From the IMG/VR virus record IMGVR_UViG_3300046658_000024, positions 1-53,434 of that record: a stretch of DNA of 53,434 bases; one strand, 5' to 3'. The position numbers and the translations under genes were made by a program. The notes under the pieces were generated by a model. It saw only the letters and a program-made list of their open reading frames with translations, did not search any database and was not told the origin of the DNA. Position 1 is the first letter of the stretch; each line of letters opens with the position of its first letter. This DNA comes from a virus. Taxonomy: Duplodnaviria; Caudoviricetes. Shown in pieces: positions 10,785 through 21,810 of this stretch.

Positions 10785-11264
10785 ATGGCCGACCTTCTCA
10801 ACGATGGCAATAGTCGGGTCTACTGGGTGGCGTCCGGAGGTATCGCCAACATCGCCGCCCCCACCACAACGGAGCTGAATGCTGGCGTGCGACTCGACCA
10901 GCTCCTGACTCCGGACGGGCTCAAGGAGGATTCGTCGACTGCGGACATCGACCTGTCCTTCCTCTCGTCCACGTTCAACACCGCCAGTGCCGGTCGCCGC
11001 AAATTCGACATAGCGGTGGTGGCAAAGCGGCAGACTCCGACCGATACCGTCCTGAACCTCCTGCCGTACAGGACGTCTGGGTATCTGGTCGTGCGGGACA
11101 CGGTAGACGCAAACACGGCGTGGACCGCTGCTCAGAAGTGCAGGGTGTACCCGGTTCAGACTGGCGAGCCGATGATGGCTGCCAAGACGGAAAACTCGGT
11201 CGCCCGCTTCACTTCCCCCATGTACATGACGGCTGAGCCGAACACTAGCGCGACGGTGGCCTGA
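10785..11264 (+). CDS. Major tail protein
   Basis: 159 aa; IANIAAPTTTELNAG, GYLVVR, VYPV motifs of actinophage tail tube proteins. Confidence 0.9.
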   Translation: MADLLNDGNSRVYWVASGGIANIAAPTTTELNAGVRLDQLLTPDGLKEDSSTADIDLSFLSSTFNTASAGRRKFDIAVVAKRQTPTDTVLNLLPYRTSGYLVVRDTVDANTAWTAAQKCRVYPVQTGEPMMAAKTENSVARFTSPMYMTAEPNTSATVA

Positions 11265-11767
11265 TGGCCGATAGCTTCGACGCGTTCCTGGACGGCATCA
11301 AGCTCCCGGAACGCTCCGTGTCCCTGTGCCTCCGCGGCGACCTCCAGGACGCCTACGAGGACATCCAGCGGCGCATCGATGACCTGCCCAGCAAATGGGA
11401 ATCTGGGTCTCTGTCGGACGTCAACCCGCGGATCGCACTGGAACGGCAGCGTGAAGAAGTCCGGGATGAGATGGCCGCCCACGAGAAGGTGTTCCGGTTC
11501 CGAGCTCTGCCCCGACAGCAGTACGCGGAACTGCTCGTCAGGCACCAGAACGACCGTGGTGGCCTGGACCCTGCGACCTGGCCGATCGCACTGATAGCCG
11601 CATGCCTGTTCGAGCCGTGGACGCTGTCTGAGGATCAGGTAGCGCAGCTTCCGCAGCGCATGTCGGACATCCAGTTTCAGCAGCTGTACGACACCGCGCT
11701 GGCCTGCAACCGTGAAGGGGTGTCGGTCCCTTTCTCGCGGCGTCCATCCGCCGCGAGCCCGAACTAA
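11264..11767 (+). CDS. Tail assembly chaperone (G)
   Basis: 167 aa between major tail and tape measure; ends VSVPFS. Confidence 0.9.
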   Translation: MADSFDAFLDGIKLPERSVSLCLRGDLQDAYEDIQRRIDDLPSKWESGSLSDVNPRIALERQREEVRDEMAAHEKVFRFRALPRQQYAELLVRHQNDRGGLDPATWPIALIAACLFEPWTLSEDQVAQLPQRMSDIQFQQLYDTALACNREGVSVPFSRRPSAASPN

Positions 11768-12126
11768 GAGCGGAACTCGAAGCTGCCCGTGCGTGGTCGG
11801 TGGCCCCATCCCGATGGAGGGGTAGGGAACCGAAAACCACCATCACGCATGAGTACAACGATGATGGTCGGCTCGTCCGGTCTGTAGTCTCCCGCGAGAC
11901 TGAATGGCTGGAGTCTGACCGGGCTGAAGCCCTGGCTCTCGGGCTGGAGGATGCGGCCCGCTGTGGTGGCTGTGGCCAGCCGGTGGACGAATCGATGGAC
12001 GAAGATTCCGAAGGCTCCTACCAGGCCAAGGCTTACTCGTGCCACGCCTGTGCGGCCCGGGACGCCAAGGCCCCCGACTATGCCGATCAGAACGGTATCT
12101 ACTTCAAGGTCGTCCGGAAAACCTGA
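11728..12126 (+). CDS. Tail assembly chaperone GT extension via -1 frameshift
   Basis: Heptamer C_CCT_TTC at 11728-11734 in the correct phase; the -1 frame (LAASIRREPELRAELEAARAWSVAPSRW...) is open into the 11800-12126 ORF. Confidence 0.9.
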   Translation, partial: PFLAASIRREPELRAELEAARAWSVAPSRWRGREPKTTITHEYNDDGRLVRSVVSRETEWLESDRAEALALGLEDAARCGGCGQPVDESMDEDSEGSYQAKAYSCHACAARDAKAPDYADQNGIYFKVVRKT

Positions 12127-16594: not shown

Positions 16595-18237
16595 GTATCC
16601 CCCTGCCGCTCGCGATGCGGCTGAAAACGTCCCACCAGGATCTGCACGTTACGGCCGATCTCCGCGACCTGACTTTCCGGTCTGTCGTTCCTGGAGGATT
16701 CGCATCGGCCACATGCTCCCTCGACCGCCCACTGATTTTCCAACCCGGGGAGATTGCCCTCTACGGGAAGATGTTCGTGTATGACACCCGGCACGGTGGC
16801 ACGGTCTGGGAGGGCCGGCTTGAGGACCCTGGTGTTACCGCTGGGGATGGCCAGATCTGGGAGCTGTCCGCCGTCGGCCCGTCCGCCCATATGCGGGACC
16901 GGACGACTCCAATCATCTACGTTGACCGGTCGCTGGAGCGGTGGCGTCGTACCGCAGTCCCGTCGAACGAAAAGCCGGGGATCAGCTTCTCGGTCACGGA
17001 CGATCCGGGCGGTTCCGGTTCGCAGGCCATCGTTCTTGGCGTGCCCGATTCGTTCCACCTGGCGAACAGTGACTCGTGCACAGTGAACTACGAGGGCCTC
17101 CTGTCGGACGGGGGGTCCAATCAGAATCTCGCCCTCCTCGACTACCAGTGGGATGCCGGCTTCACGAACTCCGGCTGGCATGTCCGGGGCTTCTCGGCAC
17201 CCACTGACCTAGTGCGCGATCAGACTTTCACAACCAGCGGCTCAGGTTTCTCCGCTGCCGTCATCGGTTCGGGCGCGTTCGCCGTCGGCGACAACAGGCC
17301 ATTCTTGCAATTATTTTTTCAGACCGGTGGGCCAGCCACCACCAGTTCCGATGTCGGCTGGGTGGCATTCCGAAACGTCATCGTGCGCGCCACGACCTAC
17401 AACCGCAGCGGAACAGAGATAACCAGCGGCTACACCAGCGCTGATAGCACTATCCTGGCGTCCACGGTTGTCGCGGACCTCCTGGGCCGGCTGCTCACAC
17501 AGTTCGACGGAGCTAACGCGACCATCGACACCACCAGTTTCGGAATCGAGCAGCTCGCCTACCCGGACGGCGTGACAGCCGAACAGGTGATCGAGGATCT
17601 CTCGAAATTCGAACCCGGATACTACGCCGCCGCGTGGGAGTCGAACGCGGCCGGGAAGTACCGTTTCGAGTACAAAGCCTGGCCAACCAGCATCGGCCTG
17701 GAAGCGGACATCGTCGATGGGTTTTCATCGCCCGGATCAGCGGATGGCCTGTACAACAAGGTGCGAATCAGATACCGCGGCGAGGGCGGCCGGTCGAAAA
17801 CTGTGCAGCGTACCCAGACTGTGCAGCAGCTCACCGATGCCGGGATTGACCGCGAGGCATACCTGGACCTTGGTGACGAGGTCGGGACAACAACCAACAA
17901 CGCCAACCAGGCCGGCGACCAGTTCTTGGCCGAGCACGCCCAACCCCCGAACGCGGGCCGGCTCACGCTCGCGCGACCCATCTTGGACCTGGAAACCGGC
18001 CGGATGTTGTCGCCGTGGGAGATTCGCCCGGGTCGCCTGATCCGGGTCCGTGGGGTCATGCCAACCCGCGACTCGCTCAATGCGACCACGAGGGACGGCG
18101 TCACCGTGTTTCGCGTCGTGGGCTCGGAGTTCAGGGCATCGTCAGCTACGGCGGAACTGGAGCTCGACTCCTACCCCGTGTCGATCGCGCGCGCGATCGC
18201 GACGATGAAGAAGCGACCAGACATTAGGCGGCGGTGA
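16591..18237 (+). CDS. Minor tail protein (baseplate hub/Tal-like)
   Basis: 548 aa; PGGFASA, VWEGRLEDP, PWEIRPG. Confidence 0.8.
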   Translation: MSIPLPLAMRLKTSHQDLHVTADLRDLTFRSVVPGGFASATCSLDRPLIFQPGEIALYGKMFVYDTRHGGTVWEGRLEDPGVTAGDGQIWELSAVGPSAHMRDRTTPIIYVDRSLERWRRTAVPSNEKPGISFSVTDDPGGSGSQAIVLGVPDSFHLANSDSCTVNYEGLLSDGGSNQNLALLDYQWDAGFTNSGWHVRGFSAPTDLVRDQTFTTSGSGFSAAVIGSGAFAVGDNRPFLQLFFQTGGPATTSSDVGWVAFRNVIVRATTYNRSGTEITSGYTSADSTILASTVVADLLGRLLTQFDGANATIDTTSFGIEQLAYPDGVTAEQVIEDLSKFEPGYYAAAWESNAAGKYRFEYKAWPTSIGLEADIVDGFSSPGSADGLYNKVRIRYRGEGGRSKTVQRTQTVQQLTDAGIDREAYLDLGDEVGTTTNNANQAGDQFLAEHAQPPNAGRLTLARPILDLETGRMLSPWEIRPGRLIRVRGVMPTRDSLNATTRDGVTVFRVVGSEFRASSATAELELDSYPVSIARAIATMKKRPDIRRR

Positions 18238-18350
18238 TGCGCGTACCCGAGGTACCTGGCGGGCTCATGCCGGATGCCACATGGCTGCTGCCCTCAGGGC
18301 TGCCGCTGACCGGTGAGGAGATATCGCGTCTCCCGGAAGAGCTTTCGTGA
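18237..18350 (+). CDS. Possible 37-aa microprotein
   Basis: ATG overlaps upstream TGA; MRVPEVPGGLMPDATWLLP. Confidence 0.35.
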   Translation: MRVPEVPGGLMPDATWLLPSGLPLTGEEISRLPEELS

Positions 18351-18371
18351 CCACGCACTACAGGAGGACGG

Positions 18372-19061
18372 ATGACGGAGGAAGACGTGGGTAACTACGG
18401 TGCTGGTGTGCTCGGTAGCTGGTCTGGTCTGGGTCACTCGATCTCACCGGTGGACATTCTCCAGACCGTCCATGACTCGGGCGGGATTCTGGCGCTCGGG
18501 GATTCGATCCTGTACGCCACCGTCACCGACCTAGCTACTCGGGCCAACAACCACGGCACGAACTTCGCGGTCAACGCGTGGTCGGGCCGTCCCACAACCC
18601 CGGCGGTGGACTGGCTCCAGAGCAACGTGGTCAACGCCAACCTGATGCCGGGCACACTGCTGATGTGCACGGGGACGAATGACGTGTTCGACCCGTCTGT
18701 TTTCGACCCGGCGGCGGTGGGTCAGGTGGACCAGCTGGAACGTGTGATGGCTTTGGTTGGCCCGGATCTGCCGGTGTGGTGGGTCACGGTGTACGTGGGC
18801 CGGTTCGACGCGACGGCTGCGGTGCGTGAGGCTCAAGTCCGTAACAGCGGCTGGATCAACGGCCAGCTTCACGAGGCTGCGAGCCGACACCCGAACCTGC
18901 ACATCATCGACTGGTACCGGTTCCTCGCTCAAGGCGTCACCAACGGGTCACCGCCGCAGGACTGGCGGATCAGGTCCGGCCTGGTCGACGGGGTGCACAC
19001 CACGGCGTGGGGTTCGGATGCGCGTAACGACCTGATCGAGGCCGCCATCTGGCCGGCGTAA
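18372..19061 (+). CDS. SGNH/GDSL hydrolase
   Basis: Blocks LALGDSI, SGR, GTND, DGVH all present; SD AGGAGG. Confidence 0.9.
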   Translation: MTEEDVGNYGAGVLGSWSGLGHSISPVDILQTVHDSGGILALGDSILYATVTDLATRANNHGTNFAVNAWSGRPTTPAVDWLQSNVVNANLMPGTLLMCTGTNDVFDPSVFDPAAVGQVDQLERVMALVGPDLPVWWVTVYVGRFDATAAVREAQVRNSGWINGQLHEAASRHPNLHIIDWYRFLAQGVTNGSPPQDWRIRSGLVDGVHTTAWGSDARNDLIEAAIWPA

Positions 19062-19070
19062 GGAGCCGCA

Positions 19071-19874
19071 ATGCCTGAACTGTGGATGCCCGGGGTCGTC
19101 CATCATCCGCTGCCCGATTCGGACACCGGAATGCAGACCCAGTACCCGCCGCGGGCTATCGCCCACATCACCTGGGACGCCAAACCGGTCAGCTTCGAGG
19201 CGCTGTTCCGGTACTTCACTGGTGACGGCCAGAGCAAGGCCCCCCACATTCTGTGGGATCCGATCACCGGCAAGATCGGCCAGTTCTACCCGGCCACCTC
19301 GCGCTCAAAGAGCGTGGCGGACAGGGCCGGGGGCACCCGTACCAACCGCACGGGAAGGGTCTGCATCCAGATCGAGGCTCTCCTGTCGCCCGGGAAAACC
19401 ACATACAACGGCCGCGTATGCCAGACCCTGCTCGACACTCCCTGTAAGGGCTGGGATCAGCTCCTGGCTTGGGTGTGTTCGTGGGGTGTGCCCTGCGTGT
19501 GGCCCATGGGGATGCCGGATTTCGCGAGCCACCGTAACGAGCGTGTGTGGGAGGCCCAAGGCGGCTGGTACGGACACTCCCAGGTCCCCGAGAACACGCA
19601 CACCGATCCCGGCCCATGGCCTGCTTTCCCGCCACCGAAGCCGACCTCCGAGAAGGATGACGACATGACCCCCGAGCAGGACGCGCTCCTGACGTACGTC
19701 AGCAAGCAGGTGAAAGCCGTGGCCGACCTGGTGATCCTGCTGGACGGCCGTCGTGCCACCCAGATCCAGGCTCTCGGTACGGCGATCGACGCGAACGTCG
19801 ACGCCGAGACAACCGAGATCGACGGGAAGCTGGCCGAACTGAAGGCCCTACTCGCTGCGAGCCCGGGAAACTGA
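19071..19874 (+). CDS. Endolysin, N-acetylmuramoyl-L-alanine amidase with C-terminal helical domain
   Basis: AHITW, PHILWDP, GHSQVPENTHTDPG zinc-amidase motifs; Pro linker, then helical tail. Confidence 0.9.
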   Translation: MPELWMPGVVHHPLPDSDTGMQTQYPPRAIAHITWDAKPVSFEALFRYFTGDGQSKAPHILWDPITGKIGQFYPATSRSKSVADRAGGTRTNRTGRVCIQIEALLSPGKTTYNGRVCQTLLDTPCKGWDQLLAWVCSWGVPCVWPMGMPDFASHRNERVWEAQGGWYGHSQVPENTHTDPGPWPAFPPPKPTSEKDDDMTPEQDALLTYVSKQVKAVADLVILLDGRRATQIQALGTAIDANVDAETTEIDGKLAELKALLAASPGN

Positions 19875-20431
19875 CTGGGCCGGTCCCGATCCTGGGCCCG
19901 GCCTCCACATCTGTCGCCACCGTGTCCGGCTACATTCGCGCCCAGCTCGACATCCCACCCCGGGAGACGACTTGGTTTCTCGAGGCGTGCGAAGCGCTGT
20001 GGGATGCCGGGGTCACGCACGGGGTTGACCCGGTGGTGCTGATCGCCCAATGCGCATTGGAAACCGGCTGGGGGCAGTTCGGTGGCGTGATCGACAGCTC
20101 GTACAACAACACCTGCGGATTGAAGGCGGCCGGTCGGACCGGTGACACTCCCGAGGATCACGCCCGTTTCGACAGCCTCGCCACGGGCGCCCTGGCTCAT
20201 TGCCAGCACCTGATGGGCTACGCCGGGGTTGTCCCGGGCACGCCGATCGTGGACCCGCGCTGGTCCGGTGTGGCACCCGGGACCGTACGGCACGGCATTG
20301 CCCCGGCCGTGCGTGAGCTCGGCGGCCTAGTGGATCCGAACCAGCCGGAGTTGGGGTCGCGGTGGAATCCGGATCCAGAGTACGGAGTCAAGATCGAGGC
20401 CATCTTCTGGCGTTTGCGCGGCCAAACCTGA
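19865..20431 (+). CDS. GH73 glucosaminidase domain, probably reached by -1 frameshift from the endolysin
   Basis: DPVVLIAQCALETGWG, NNTCGLK; frame open back through G_GGA_AAC (19865-19871); no SD before GTG 19922. Confidence 0.85.
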   Translation, partial: GKLTGPVPILGPASTSVATVSGYIRAQLDIPPRETTWFLEACEALWDAGVTHGVDPVVLIAQCALETGWGQFGGVIDSSYNNTCGLKAAGRTGDTPEDHARFDSLATGALAHCQHLMGYAGVVPGTPIVDPRWSGVAPGTVRHGIAPAVRELGGLVDPNQPELGSRWNPDPEYGVKIEAIFWRLRGQT

Positions 20432-20485
20432 ACCGCGCTGGTGAACGTTCAAGCCTGAGCCACGAAACCTGAACCAGGAGGATCG

Positions 20486-20725
20486 ATGCTCAACCATCTA
20501 CGTCACTTCGAGCCGGCCCGACTCCAGGCTCTGAAGGTCGCAGTGTTCGGCGTCCTGGCCGTGCTCGGCGTGACCGTGCCAGCCGACGTGGACGGCCGGA
20601 TCGCCGCCGGTCTGACCGTCCTCGCCGGAGTGCTGGCGCTGTTCCAGGGGGAGACCACCCGCCGTCGCGTCCGGCCCGCAGTGGAGCACGGTGTACGGGC
20701 TGTTGAACCCGACCGGAGCGAGTAG
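20486..20725 (+). CDS. Holin
   Basis: 79 aa, two hydrophobic segments, basic C-terminus; SD AGGAGG; follows lysins. Confidence 0.8.
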   Translation: MLNHLRHFEPARLQALKVAVFGVLAVLGVTVPADVDGRIAAGLTVLAGVLALFQGETTRRRVRPAVEHGVRAVEPDRSE

Positions 20726-20737
20726 CCGGCGCGTGAT

Positions 20738-21007
20738 GTGACCGATGATCCGTCTCCCCGCGAGCTCGGCCGGTCCATCGACCGAGTCGAGCGGCGAGTC
20801 GATGCGTTGGCGTCGGATCTGGTTGGTCGACGCGAGTACGAGCAGCGCATCAAGGCCATCGAGGACGACATTGCGGAGATCCGCCAGGCGCTCAAGGATG
20901 GCCAGCGGCAGCGCGGTACGGACTGGCGGCAGCTCGCCTACGGTGCCCTCATCCCCGCTCTCCTGTTCGTTGCCTCGGTGCTGGCGGCTTCCCGGGCTGG
21001 TCACTGA
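20738..21007 (+). CDS. Lysis-cassette membrane protein
   Basis: 89 aa; coiled coil followed by a C-terminal TM segment. Confidence 0.75.
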   Translation: MTDDPSPRELGRSIDRVERRVDALASDLVGRREYEQRIKAIEDDIAEIRQALKDGQRQRGTDWRQLAYGALIPALLFVASVLAASRAGH

Positions 21008-21720
21008 TGGCCCATAAGGTCCGCCGGGATCTCCTGCCCGCGCTCGCTGCGGTGGTTGCGGTGCTGTTGCTCGCCGCCGGGTATTGGCAGATCGCCCGCA
21101 TGGGTGCCCGGCTGGACCAAGCGGAGACGGACCGGGCCGCGGTGGCGAAAGCGATGGCGGACGCAAACAGCAACGTGGCGGCCCTCCAGAAGCAGGTCAA
21201 GGGCCTGGGTGGTCAGCCGGTCGCCGGACCGGTGCCGATGCCTGAGCGGGGCGTTCAGGGCGTCCCTGGACCACAAGGTCCGGCTGGTCCGGGGCCGACT
21301 CGGCAGCAGATCGACGACGGGCTCAGCAGGTACCTGACGCTGCATCCACCAGCGCGTGGGGCCAAAGGTGAGCCGGGTTCCAGCGTCACTCAGGCTCAGG
21401 CTGCAACCCTGGTGGCGGCCTACCTACAGACCCATCCGCCAGCCTCAGGCAAGGACGGTCGGGACGGGCAGGATGGTGCCCCCGGTCCAGGACCGACCCA
21501 GCAGCAGATCGCTACTGAGGTAGCGGCGTACCTGCAAGCCCATCCCCCGGCGGCTGGCGAGAAGGGCGACCCGGGCGAGCCTGGCCGTCCTCCGACCGCG
21601 GAGGAGATCTCTGCTGCGGTGTCCTCGTGGATGGCTGGCCACGACCTGTACTGCACGCCCCCGGGGCCGCTAGGGCAGGTCAAGGACGAGCCCTGGCCGT
21701 GCGAGTTCCGATCGAAGTAG
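21007..21720 (+). CDS. Membrane-anchored collagen-like lysis accessory protein
   Basis: N-terminal TM, coiled coil, Gly-X-Y runs, repeated YL..HPPA units, two C-terminal Cys. Confidence 0.75.
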   Translation: MAHKVRRDLLPALAAVVAVLLLAAGYWQIARMGARLDQAETDRAAVAKAMADANSNVAALQKQVKGLGGQPVAGPVPMPERGVQGVPGPQGPAGPGPTRQQIDDGLSRYLTLHPPARGAKGEPGSSVTQAQAATLVAAYLQTHPPASGKDGRDGQDGAPGPGPTQQQIATEVAAYLQAHPPAAGEKGDPGEPGRPPTAEEISAAVSSWMAGHDLYCTPPGPLGQVKDEPWPCEFRSK

Positions 21721-21810
21721 CGCCACCCAGTACGTCTCGCGGTGCCGGTACTGGTAACCCGGCCCGGGATCCCCCGGTACGAGCCAAGACGCCTAAGGTC
21801 GGCGAGACAA

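Follow-up and report, generated by a model that had tools for sequence, protein, structure and literature searches.

Organization of the locus

The DNA analysed in this work (the window, 53,434 bases on one strand) is the complete virus record IMGVR_UViG_3300046658_000024 of IMG/VR, which comes from a soil metagenome and has about 64% G+C. Genes for terminase, portal, tape-measure and tail proteins were found on its + strand, followed by a lysis region. Two reading frames of this region, an open reading frame (ORF) for a peptidoglycan amidase and, in the -1 frame behind it, a coding region for a GH73 glucosaminidase, are the subject of this work. A preliminary description of the window had proposed that the two are joined by programmed -1 frameshifting, a proposal which our analysis found probable. 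The features involved, all of them on the + strand, were as follows:

19071..19874, + strand: amidase ORF, 0 frame, 267 amino acids (aa) and stop, encoding a peptidoglycan amidase with a helical tail, the predicted short product (ORF listing, PHROG 17214, identity to mu1/6, Shine-Dalgarno sequence)
19071..19628, + strand: catalytic domain of the amidase, residues about 1-186, Amidase_2/PGRP fold (AlphaFold2 (AF2) model and Foldseek)
19629..19871, + strand: helical C-terminal tail of the amidase, residues about 187-267, ending ..ASPGN (AF2 model)
19862..19871, + strand: tandem slip site C_CCG_GGA_AAC, made of the in-phase heptamers C_CCG_GGA (19862-19868) and G_GGA_AAC (19865-19871)
19871..20431, + strand: -1-frame GH73 glucosaminidase coding region, 186 codons and stop, the C-terminal portion of the 453-aa product predicted to arise by frameshifting (open frame, PF01832, fold)
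19872..19874, + strand: 0-frame stop TGA, immediately 3' of the heptamer
19877..19904, + strand: GC-rich hairpin 5 nucleotides (nt) past the heptamer, with 7 + 4 pairs, one 1x1 mismatch and a 4-nt loop
19889..19900, + strand: I-L-G-P, a conserved N-terminal motif of this GH73 subfamily, 5' of any canonical start (alignment A1)
19922..19924, + strand: GTG, the first ATG/GTG/TTG of the -1 frame and the gene-caller start of P0151 (169 aa), the window's own called protein
20060..20062, + strand: invariant Glu codon, E64 of the module (..ALETGWG..), invariant in alignments A1 and A2

The junction between the two frames

The amidase ORF ended GCG AGC CCG GGA AAC TGA. The in-phase heptamer that the preliminary description had placed right before the stop was present as described, and so was the hairpin after its short spacer, which folded as drawn with an energy of -20.2 to -20.3 kcal/mol. 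The -1 frame, reading LTGPVPILGPASTSVATV..., was open for 188 codons at the slip site and free of stops up to 20431, and thus ran into the glucosaminidase as claimed. These coordinates yield the product sizes given earlier, 267 aa and about 453 aa. In-phase heptamers were uncommon in the window (16 in the 6312 codons of 23 hand-picked + strand ORFs), and the slip codons were rare in this genome, GGA accounting for 10% of the Gly codons and CCA for 12% of the Pro codons. An Rfam scan of 19750-20000, at E values up to 1, returned no family.

The glucosaminidase module and its missing start

The downstream ORF matched the Pfam family Glucosaminidase (PF01832, E 2.3e-10, 41.6 bits against a cut-off of 30.2). 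Its AF2 model had a predicted local distance difference test (pLDDT) score of 93.6, and the matching folds in the PDB were those of Auto (3fi7), LytB (7pj4), FlgJ (5dn5) and AtlE (4pi9). The cultured phages with a match to this module were Firmicutes phages only, with identities up to 34%. E64, located in the E-[TS]-G motif, is presumably the catalytic acid of the GH73 fold.

No ATG, GTG or TTG was present in the -1 frame between the upstream stop of that frame and GTG 19922, and no purine-rich Shine-Dalgarno sequence was found in the 22 nt upstream of this GTG. AGGAGG or AAGGAG preceded the neighbouring starts at 18372, 19071 and 20486 (AAGGAG in the case of the 19071 ATG, AGGAGG in the case of 20486), which bears out the earlier remark that the GTG differs from its neighbours.

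Conservation of the module extended upstream of this codon. The 186-residue -1-frame translation was searched against 1.84 billion cluster representatives (50% clustering), giving 1637 matches; many of the 150 matches listed aligned from query residue 5-7, that is, within the 17 residues 5' of GTG 19922. The PILGPAS of the window aligned to the M[RKT]ILGP N-termini of 11 of the 14 homologues in alignment A1, the other 3 being shorter at the N-terminus. In the model, residues 1-10 had a pLDDT of 88, and a helix comprising residues 15-25 spanned the GTG codon. In our reading GTG 19922 encodes a Val inside the protein, at residue 18 of the GH73 module; judging from the alignment and the model, a protein started there would be missing a conserved portion of the fold and is very unlikely to work as an enzyme. 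The G+C content at third codon positions (GC3) of the -1 frame was 0.82 over 19871-19921, the same as in flanking genes, versus 0.40 upstream of the heptamer, and -1-frame coding therefore appears to begin at the slip site. Lacking its own start codon, the module would be obtainable as a whole only via a frameshift.

The amidase and its helical tail

The upstream product is probably an amidase endolysin, as described earlier. The ORF matched PHROG 17214 (“endolysin”, E 1.1e-52), and its residues 1-179 were 58% identical to the endolysin of Streptomyces phage mu1/6. All 14 records of cultured phages with a match to the amidase belonged to Streptomyces phages, and the host is probably actinobacterial. 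No Pfam family was matched at E values up to 1 (PF01510 included), nor was there any NCBIfam or PDB sequence match. In the AF2 model (m3613f46433cc, built on 26 homologues) the blocks of the N-terminal domain mostly had pLDDT values of 80-96. The best Foldseek match of this domain was AmiA (4knl, E 8.6e-6; probability 1.00, template modelling (TM) score 0.42-0.53), followed by PlyP100, AmiE, AmpD and the LytA amidase. H32, E102, H169, H177 and D179 were invariant among the 26 homologues, as was the D179-P180 pattern; by comparison with the motif His .. His .. Asp/Cys-Pro-Gly they include candidate zinc ligands. The label “amidase” is thus supported by the modelled fold and not by a family profile.

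The tail was modelled as three helices (201-224, 226-241 and 247-263) with pLDDT values of 58-75. A mu1/6-type amidase with a helical tail and no GH73 behind it was also observed in L005, L034 and Streptomyces phage VWB gp52 (L004 2501-3409). Most other relatives (283-309 aa) had in place of this tail a C-terminus resembling a peptidoglycan (PG)-binding domain (..ADGIPG..SW..L..), and from their sequences the helical tail and the wall-binding domain appear to take each other's place. Homologues of the amidase, with identities up to 62%, were found at 34 IMG/VR loci; most of these loci had the amidase with the PG-binding tail, at the same 283-309 aa, and none had a GH73 within 3 kb downstream. 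P0006 (447 aa) had an N-terminus different from this amidase.

The same junction in three other contigs

Profile-guided scans revealed three further loci: L040, on a 1203-base metagenome contig, and L046 and L057, on IMG/VR contigs of 63.7 and 55.1 kb respectively. In each of them a 0-frame ORF of 284-298 aa ended at the junction, and the GH73 module lay in another frame without a start before its N-terminal motif. Taking the four start-less loci together, the 0-frame ORFs had 270-308 codons and ended 0-1 codons past an in-phase X_XXA_AAC heptamer, G_GGA_AAC in three loci and C_CCA_AAC in L057. The ORFs of L040 and L046 ended ..CCG GGA AAC TGA, with the slip site and the stop in positions identical to those of the window; that of L057 ended ..CCC CCA AAC CAG TAG, with the slip site C_CCC_CCA_AAC and the stop one codon later. 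The preliminary description had named a homologue with a single uninterrupted ORF as the finding that would speak against it. These three loci, the closest readable ones, all kept the two frames, the heptamer and the hairpin.

The upstream enzymes of these loci differed: Amidase_2 (PF01510) was matched in L040 and Amidase_3 (PF01520) in L057, with no Pfam match in L046 and the window. Like-styled helical tails preceded the junction in all three contigs, and the tails of all four loci ended P-x-[ST]-P-[GP]-N. Beyond the junction and the GH73 core, the contigs shared nothing significant with the window. In L046 an HNH-endonuclease-like ORF (1233-1619) was located between the holin-like genes and the amidase, and the GH73 was the last gene before a strand switch.

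Forty-two sources (the window and L039-L079) were classified, and a motif search placed the catalytic Glu in 37 of them, corresponding to 30 distinct sequences. The distance from the first canonical start to this Glu was 46, 24, 9 and 47 codons in the window, L040, L046 and L057 respectively. These were the only four sources with a start less than 48 codons from the Glu, and exactly those with a long 0-frame ORF and the heptamer; the heptamer was found in none of the 9 distinct relatives with a start of their own (50-56 codons before the Glu). The remaining classified sources were mostly in-frame fusions, and L073 showed an incidental A_AAA_AAT with a frame open for just 25 codons. The GH73 frames of the four loci were open for 170-186 codons and kept all family-invariant residues.

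The junction was also conserved at the nucleotide level. Positions 19862-19906 of the window were identical to L040 in 43 of 45 nt, both changes being synonymous in the -1 frame; the 5' side could not be aligned, and the downstream coding sequence was about 60% identical. At the junction, 10 of the 12 residues identical in the two loci also had identical codons, versus 15 of 37 further downstream. Compared with L046 (blastn), the window showed 74% identity in the catalytic core and gave a separate 37-nt high-scoring segment pair at 19857-19893 (92%). All four loci had, 5-7 nt after the heptamer, a hairpin whose arms were GCCGG/CCGGC. Its 3' arm was in another codon phase in L057 (GGC CGG CCT, G-R-P, versus CCG GCC, P-A) and was shifted by a 2-codon insertion in L046, which suggests that the bases, and not the residues, have been kept.

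Wider survey of relatives

P0009 and P0008 were truncated calls of L046 and L057 respectively, starting from GTGs inside the domain. Eleven of 84 other close GH73 proteins had fewer than 165 aa, and the ten inspected (P0001, P0005, P0165, P0193, P0201, P0213, P0214, P0223, P0227 and P0230; called at 118-163 aa, several on contigs of 20-59 kb) began inside the conserved domain, several of them with M[VA]AQCA, just before the catalytic Glu. From these starts the ten look like further start-less loci, and the arrangement may be more common than the four loci described above.

In-frame amidase-GH73 proteins with a ..[TI]PI[ILV]G.. linker were frequent (P0017, P0023, L051, L053-55, L062/63, Pd_22F and FP_Mushu). 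No relative of the window GH73 was found in the viral contig collection, and none of P0001. In the genome contig collection one GH73 locus was found, at 41% identity, in a long in-frame ORF. A strict junction pattern had no match in the viral contig collection; a relaxed one matched 24 stretches, of which only two were real, L046 and L057 again. The junction pattern had a single match among the 401 genomes of the phylum of G001, a chance match without GH73.

Proposed mechanism and alternative explanations

We consider that programmed -1 frameshifting joins the amidase to the GH73 glucosaminidase with a probability of about 0.78, on the strength of the sequence comparisons given above. Also in its favor, the tail chaperone genes of this phage contain a canonical -1 site (C_CCT_TTC at 11728), and the predicted fusion has an architecture that is common among single-ORF proteins. 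Most ribosomes would translate 19071-19871 and stop at TGA 19872, producing the 267-aa enzyme of Amidase_2 fold with its three-helix tail. A fraction would pause over G_GGA_AAC against the hairpin 5 nt downstream, perhaps aided by the adjacent stop, and the P-site and A-site tRNAs would slip back one base (GGA to GGG and AAC to AAA). Translation would then continue in the -1 frame (CTG ACT GGG...) to a 453-aa amidase-tail-GH73 glucosaminidase. The amidase would cut the MurNAc-L-Ala amide bond and the GH73 module the glycan strand, as in in-frame amidase-glucosaminidase lysins. That the slip occurs, how frequent it is, and that both products act in lysis, we infer.

Several results weigh against this interpretation. 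The hairpin of the window was within chance for a sequence of 64% GC (z -0.5 to -0.9; 61 and 34 of 200 shuffles folded equally well) and was rejected as stand-alone statistical evidence. Compared across the four loci, the hairpins had z values of -0.94, -0.99, -2.25 and +0.09, three of the four being no stabler than shuffles. Their consensus had 10 pairs with a covariation term of only -0.06 and one double-change pair among four sequences, and the hairpin sequence is partly dictated by the codons of G-P..G-P-A. Three of the four junctions were nearly identical and may, from their sequences, descend from one origin, so that the independent support amounts to about two lineages. As to the heptamer, passages of PMC4066793 state that the AAC-to-AAA shift is poorly tolerated in Escherichia coli, the host here being probably actinobacterial, and that high-level heptamers require a ZZN that is all purine or all pyrimidine; because of this rule X_XXA_AAC is, as far as known, not a strong bacterial slip site. 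According to PMC5009743, G_GGA_AAC ranks with the best slip sites of mammalian ribosomes, and its use for g-t has been reported in the haloarchaeal virus HCTV-1. Set against the earlier statement that heptamer, spacer and stem form a canonical signal, the in-phase heptamer, the open -1 frame and the conservation among four loci agree with such a signal. The hairpin occurs at 5 nt and in all four loci, though it is no stronger than shuffles in three of them, and the heptamer class is not one known to be efficient in bacteria.

The main rival is termination-reinitiation or a non-AUG start, in which ribosomes would stop at TGA 19872 and restart at the overlapping CTG 19871 or at ATC 19889, giving a free full-length GH73. 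It owes this place to the overlap of CTG and stop (CTGA), found in the window, L040 and L046, and to the distant relatives L047/L060 and L048, in which the ATG of the GH73 gene overlaps the upstream stop at the equivalent place. The ATC of the ILGP/PIAG motif was likewise present in all four loci, and coupling of the ATGA type results in just such a -1 frame relation. P0152 (167 aa, 51% identical, on a 1762-base Joint Genome Institute (JGI) contig) was called from a GTG (V-R-P-V-P-I-L-G-P..) four codons before ILGP, and thus some relatives may initiate on their own. Reinitiation would, however, leave unexplained the in-phase heptamer in all four loci, the switch to another slippery heptamer in L057 and the rare GGA and CCA codons. 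In L057 no CTG, GTG, TTG or ATG was found between the stop and the motif (CCA GTA GAG CCG GTT CCC ATC), and the candidate starts of the window lie at the foot of or within a hairpin of -20 kcal/mol and have no Shine-Dalgarno sequence. On this evidence we regard reinitiation as unlikely.

A reading as two ordinary genes, with the GH73 started at GTG 19922 (P0151) and the heptamer and hairpin coincidental, has in its favor that this GTG is the first canonical start and the one picked by gene callers, and that initiation without a Shine-Dalgarno sequence exists in Actinobacteria. Such a start would drop the conserved ILGP strand and the beginning of helix 15-25, and the equivalent first starts of L046 and L040, 9 and 24 codons before the Glu, could neither of them yield a folded domain. 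Together with the GC3 of 0.82 ahead of the GTG and the nucleotide-level conservation of the junction, this makes coincidence very improbable. Loss of one base in the CCCGGGAAAC run of a continuous amidase-GH73 ORF, leaving a dead GH73 or reflecting a wrong assembly, would produce exactly this frame relation, and in-frame fusions of the two domains are common. The same frame break was nevertheless shared by four contigs whose samples and upstream enzymes differ, and because these contigs are independent and their GH73 frames intact, a broken gene or sequence error is hardly credible. In addition, no in-frame fused relative closer than 49% was found in the cluster-representative search (at 50% clustering). 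A second assembly of a soil-metagenome run was identical, without indels, though it probably represents the source sample and is therefore not independent. Transcriptional slippage was set aside, the longest runs (AAA and GGG, and C6 in L057) being shorter than the 7-9 generally taken to be required.

The GTG of P0152 has a further aspect: this linker codon at the junction may act as a start, and P0152 is the case likeliest to separate frameshifting from independent initiation. Searched against the viral contig collection, it matched three ordinary loci, namely two in-frame fusions and one with an ATG and a Shine-Dalgarno sequence.

A broader proposal built on the frameshift is doubtful. It holds that tail, slip site, hairpin and start-less GH73 might form a portable recoding cassette, a lysis counterpart of G/GT, in which the frameshift would set the ratio of short to long product, the shared tail would bring both into a hetero-oligomeric lysin, and X_XXA_AAC would work in actinobacterial hosts. 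The partners of such a cassette would comprise at least two Pfam-distinct amidase families (Amidase_2 and Amidase_3) and two upstream enzymes without a Pfam match.

Relation to known systems

Programmed -1 frameshifting in phages is known in tail chaperones, some capsid genes and transposases. In keeping with the earlier remark that no recoded endolysin was known, a full-text literature search, with subscription journals and supplements outside it, found no frameshift within an endolysin, and the word “endolysin” is absent from the opening 300,000 characters of the 2016 recoding review. The papers retrieved dealt with tail chaperones, terminase or transposases or, in the case of PMC9671017, with putative frameshifts “near” endolysins in cluster BI Streptomyces phages. 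The comparisons support the use of an established recoding mechanism in a class of genes for which it has not yet been described, apparently conserved across at least two lineages.

The locus resembles the lambda-type tail chaperone G/GT (PMC12859696; PMC5009743) in its in-phase X_XXY_YYZ a few codons before the upstream stop and in two predicted products with a common N-terminal part; it differs in that the proteins are lysis enzymes without homology to the chaperones and that the extension would be a complete catalytic domain. With IS3-family OrfA-OrfB (PMC13313380; PMC4066793) it shares a slip site at the end of the first ORF, a close stop, a predicted downstream structure and a fusion that would be the full enzyme, whereas IS3 heptamers are usually of the A_AAA_AAG type and the proteins are unrelated.

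The amidase-then-GH73 order, the ..PI[ILV]G.. linker and both folds are those of in-frame amidase-glucosaminidases: Atl of Staphylococcus aureus (with AmiA, 4knl), the proteins of Paenibacillus phage Pd_22F (420 aa) and Faecalibacterium phage FP_Mushu (458 aa), P0017 and P0023. These are single ORFs, whereas here two frames would be joined only by recoding, with a helical tail between the domains. Actinobacteriophages are also known to have split “lysin A” genes (SEA-PHAGES literature), and like these the window has adjacent separate ORFs with one peptidoglycan-hydrolase domain each in the lysis cassette of a high-GC phage. The split genes are taken to have their own starts, but the second ORF here has neither a start nor a Shine-Dalgarno sequence before its conserved N-terminus, is likewise start-less in L040, L046 and L057, and comes with a conserved slip signal. 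The endolysins CD27L, CTP1L and Lys170 form two products by means of an internal in-frame start. As in those, one lysis gene would give a long and a short protein sharing sequence; their short form is the C-terminal binding domain, while here it would be the N-terminal enzyme, and the long form would need a change of frame.

If the frameshift is real, recoding allows phages to dose a second activity that degrades the wall, and a group of metagenomic glucosaminidase genes called as “truncated” would be accounted for. Annotators would gain a rule to join such ORFs, and nature would have provided a test case for slippage on A_AAC in Gram-positive hosts of high GC. Engineered lysins could also take the two-enzyme product as a ready-made design.

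Neighboring genes and other in-phase heptamers

The gene following the glucosaminidase was the following:

20486..20725, + strand: holin-like gene, 79 aa, two hydrophobic stretches (ORF translation; membrane reading by eye)

Its protein had no Pfam and no PHROG match. This holin-like gene places the amidase/GH73 locus in a lysis cassette. Directly 5' of the amidase, the 229-aa protein of 18372-19061 showed a weak match to the GDSL/SGNH hydrolase family (PF13472, E 0.001, 20 bits against a cut-off of 32.9), and no PHROG or NCBIfam match. Going by this similarity, the protein may be an esterase, adding a third wall-active enzyme to the lysis cassette, or may be an accessory protein of the tail. 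No promoter or terminator was detected by consensus scans of 18200-21800.

After two small membrane-protein genes (20486-20725 and 20738-21007), the ORF 21007-21720 encoded a 237-aa protein with an N-terminal hydrophobic stretch, three repeats ..AAYLQ[TA]HPPA.G..G.. and collagen-like G-x-y runs, and a weak match to PHROG 18350 (“tail fiber”, E 5e-6). C_CCG_GGC (21570) and C_CCG_GGG (21660) were in phase in this ORF, with the -1 frame open for 130 and 100 codons respectively, to 21962; such long open frames are expected, because the region has 68% G+C.

An in-phase G_GGA_AAG (2082-2088) was located near the end of the putative terminase ORF (511-2124), 12 codons ahead of its stop; it is probably due to chance, since the -1 frame closes after 28 codons. 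Upstream of the tape-measure gene, an in-phase C_CCT_TTC (11728-11734) was found 11 codons before the stop of the ORF 11264-11767, with the -1 frame open for 132 codons to 12126 (the next ORF being 11800-12126). This is the predicted tail assembly chaperone G/GT frameshift expected for this phage.

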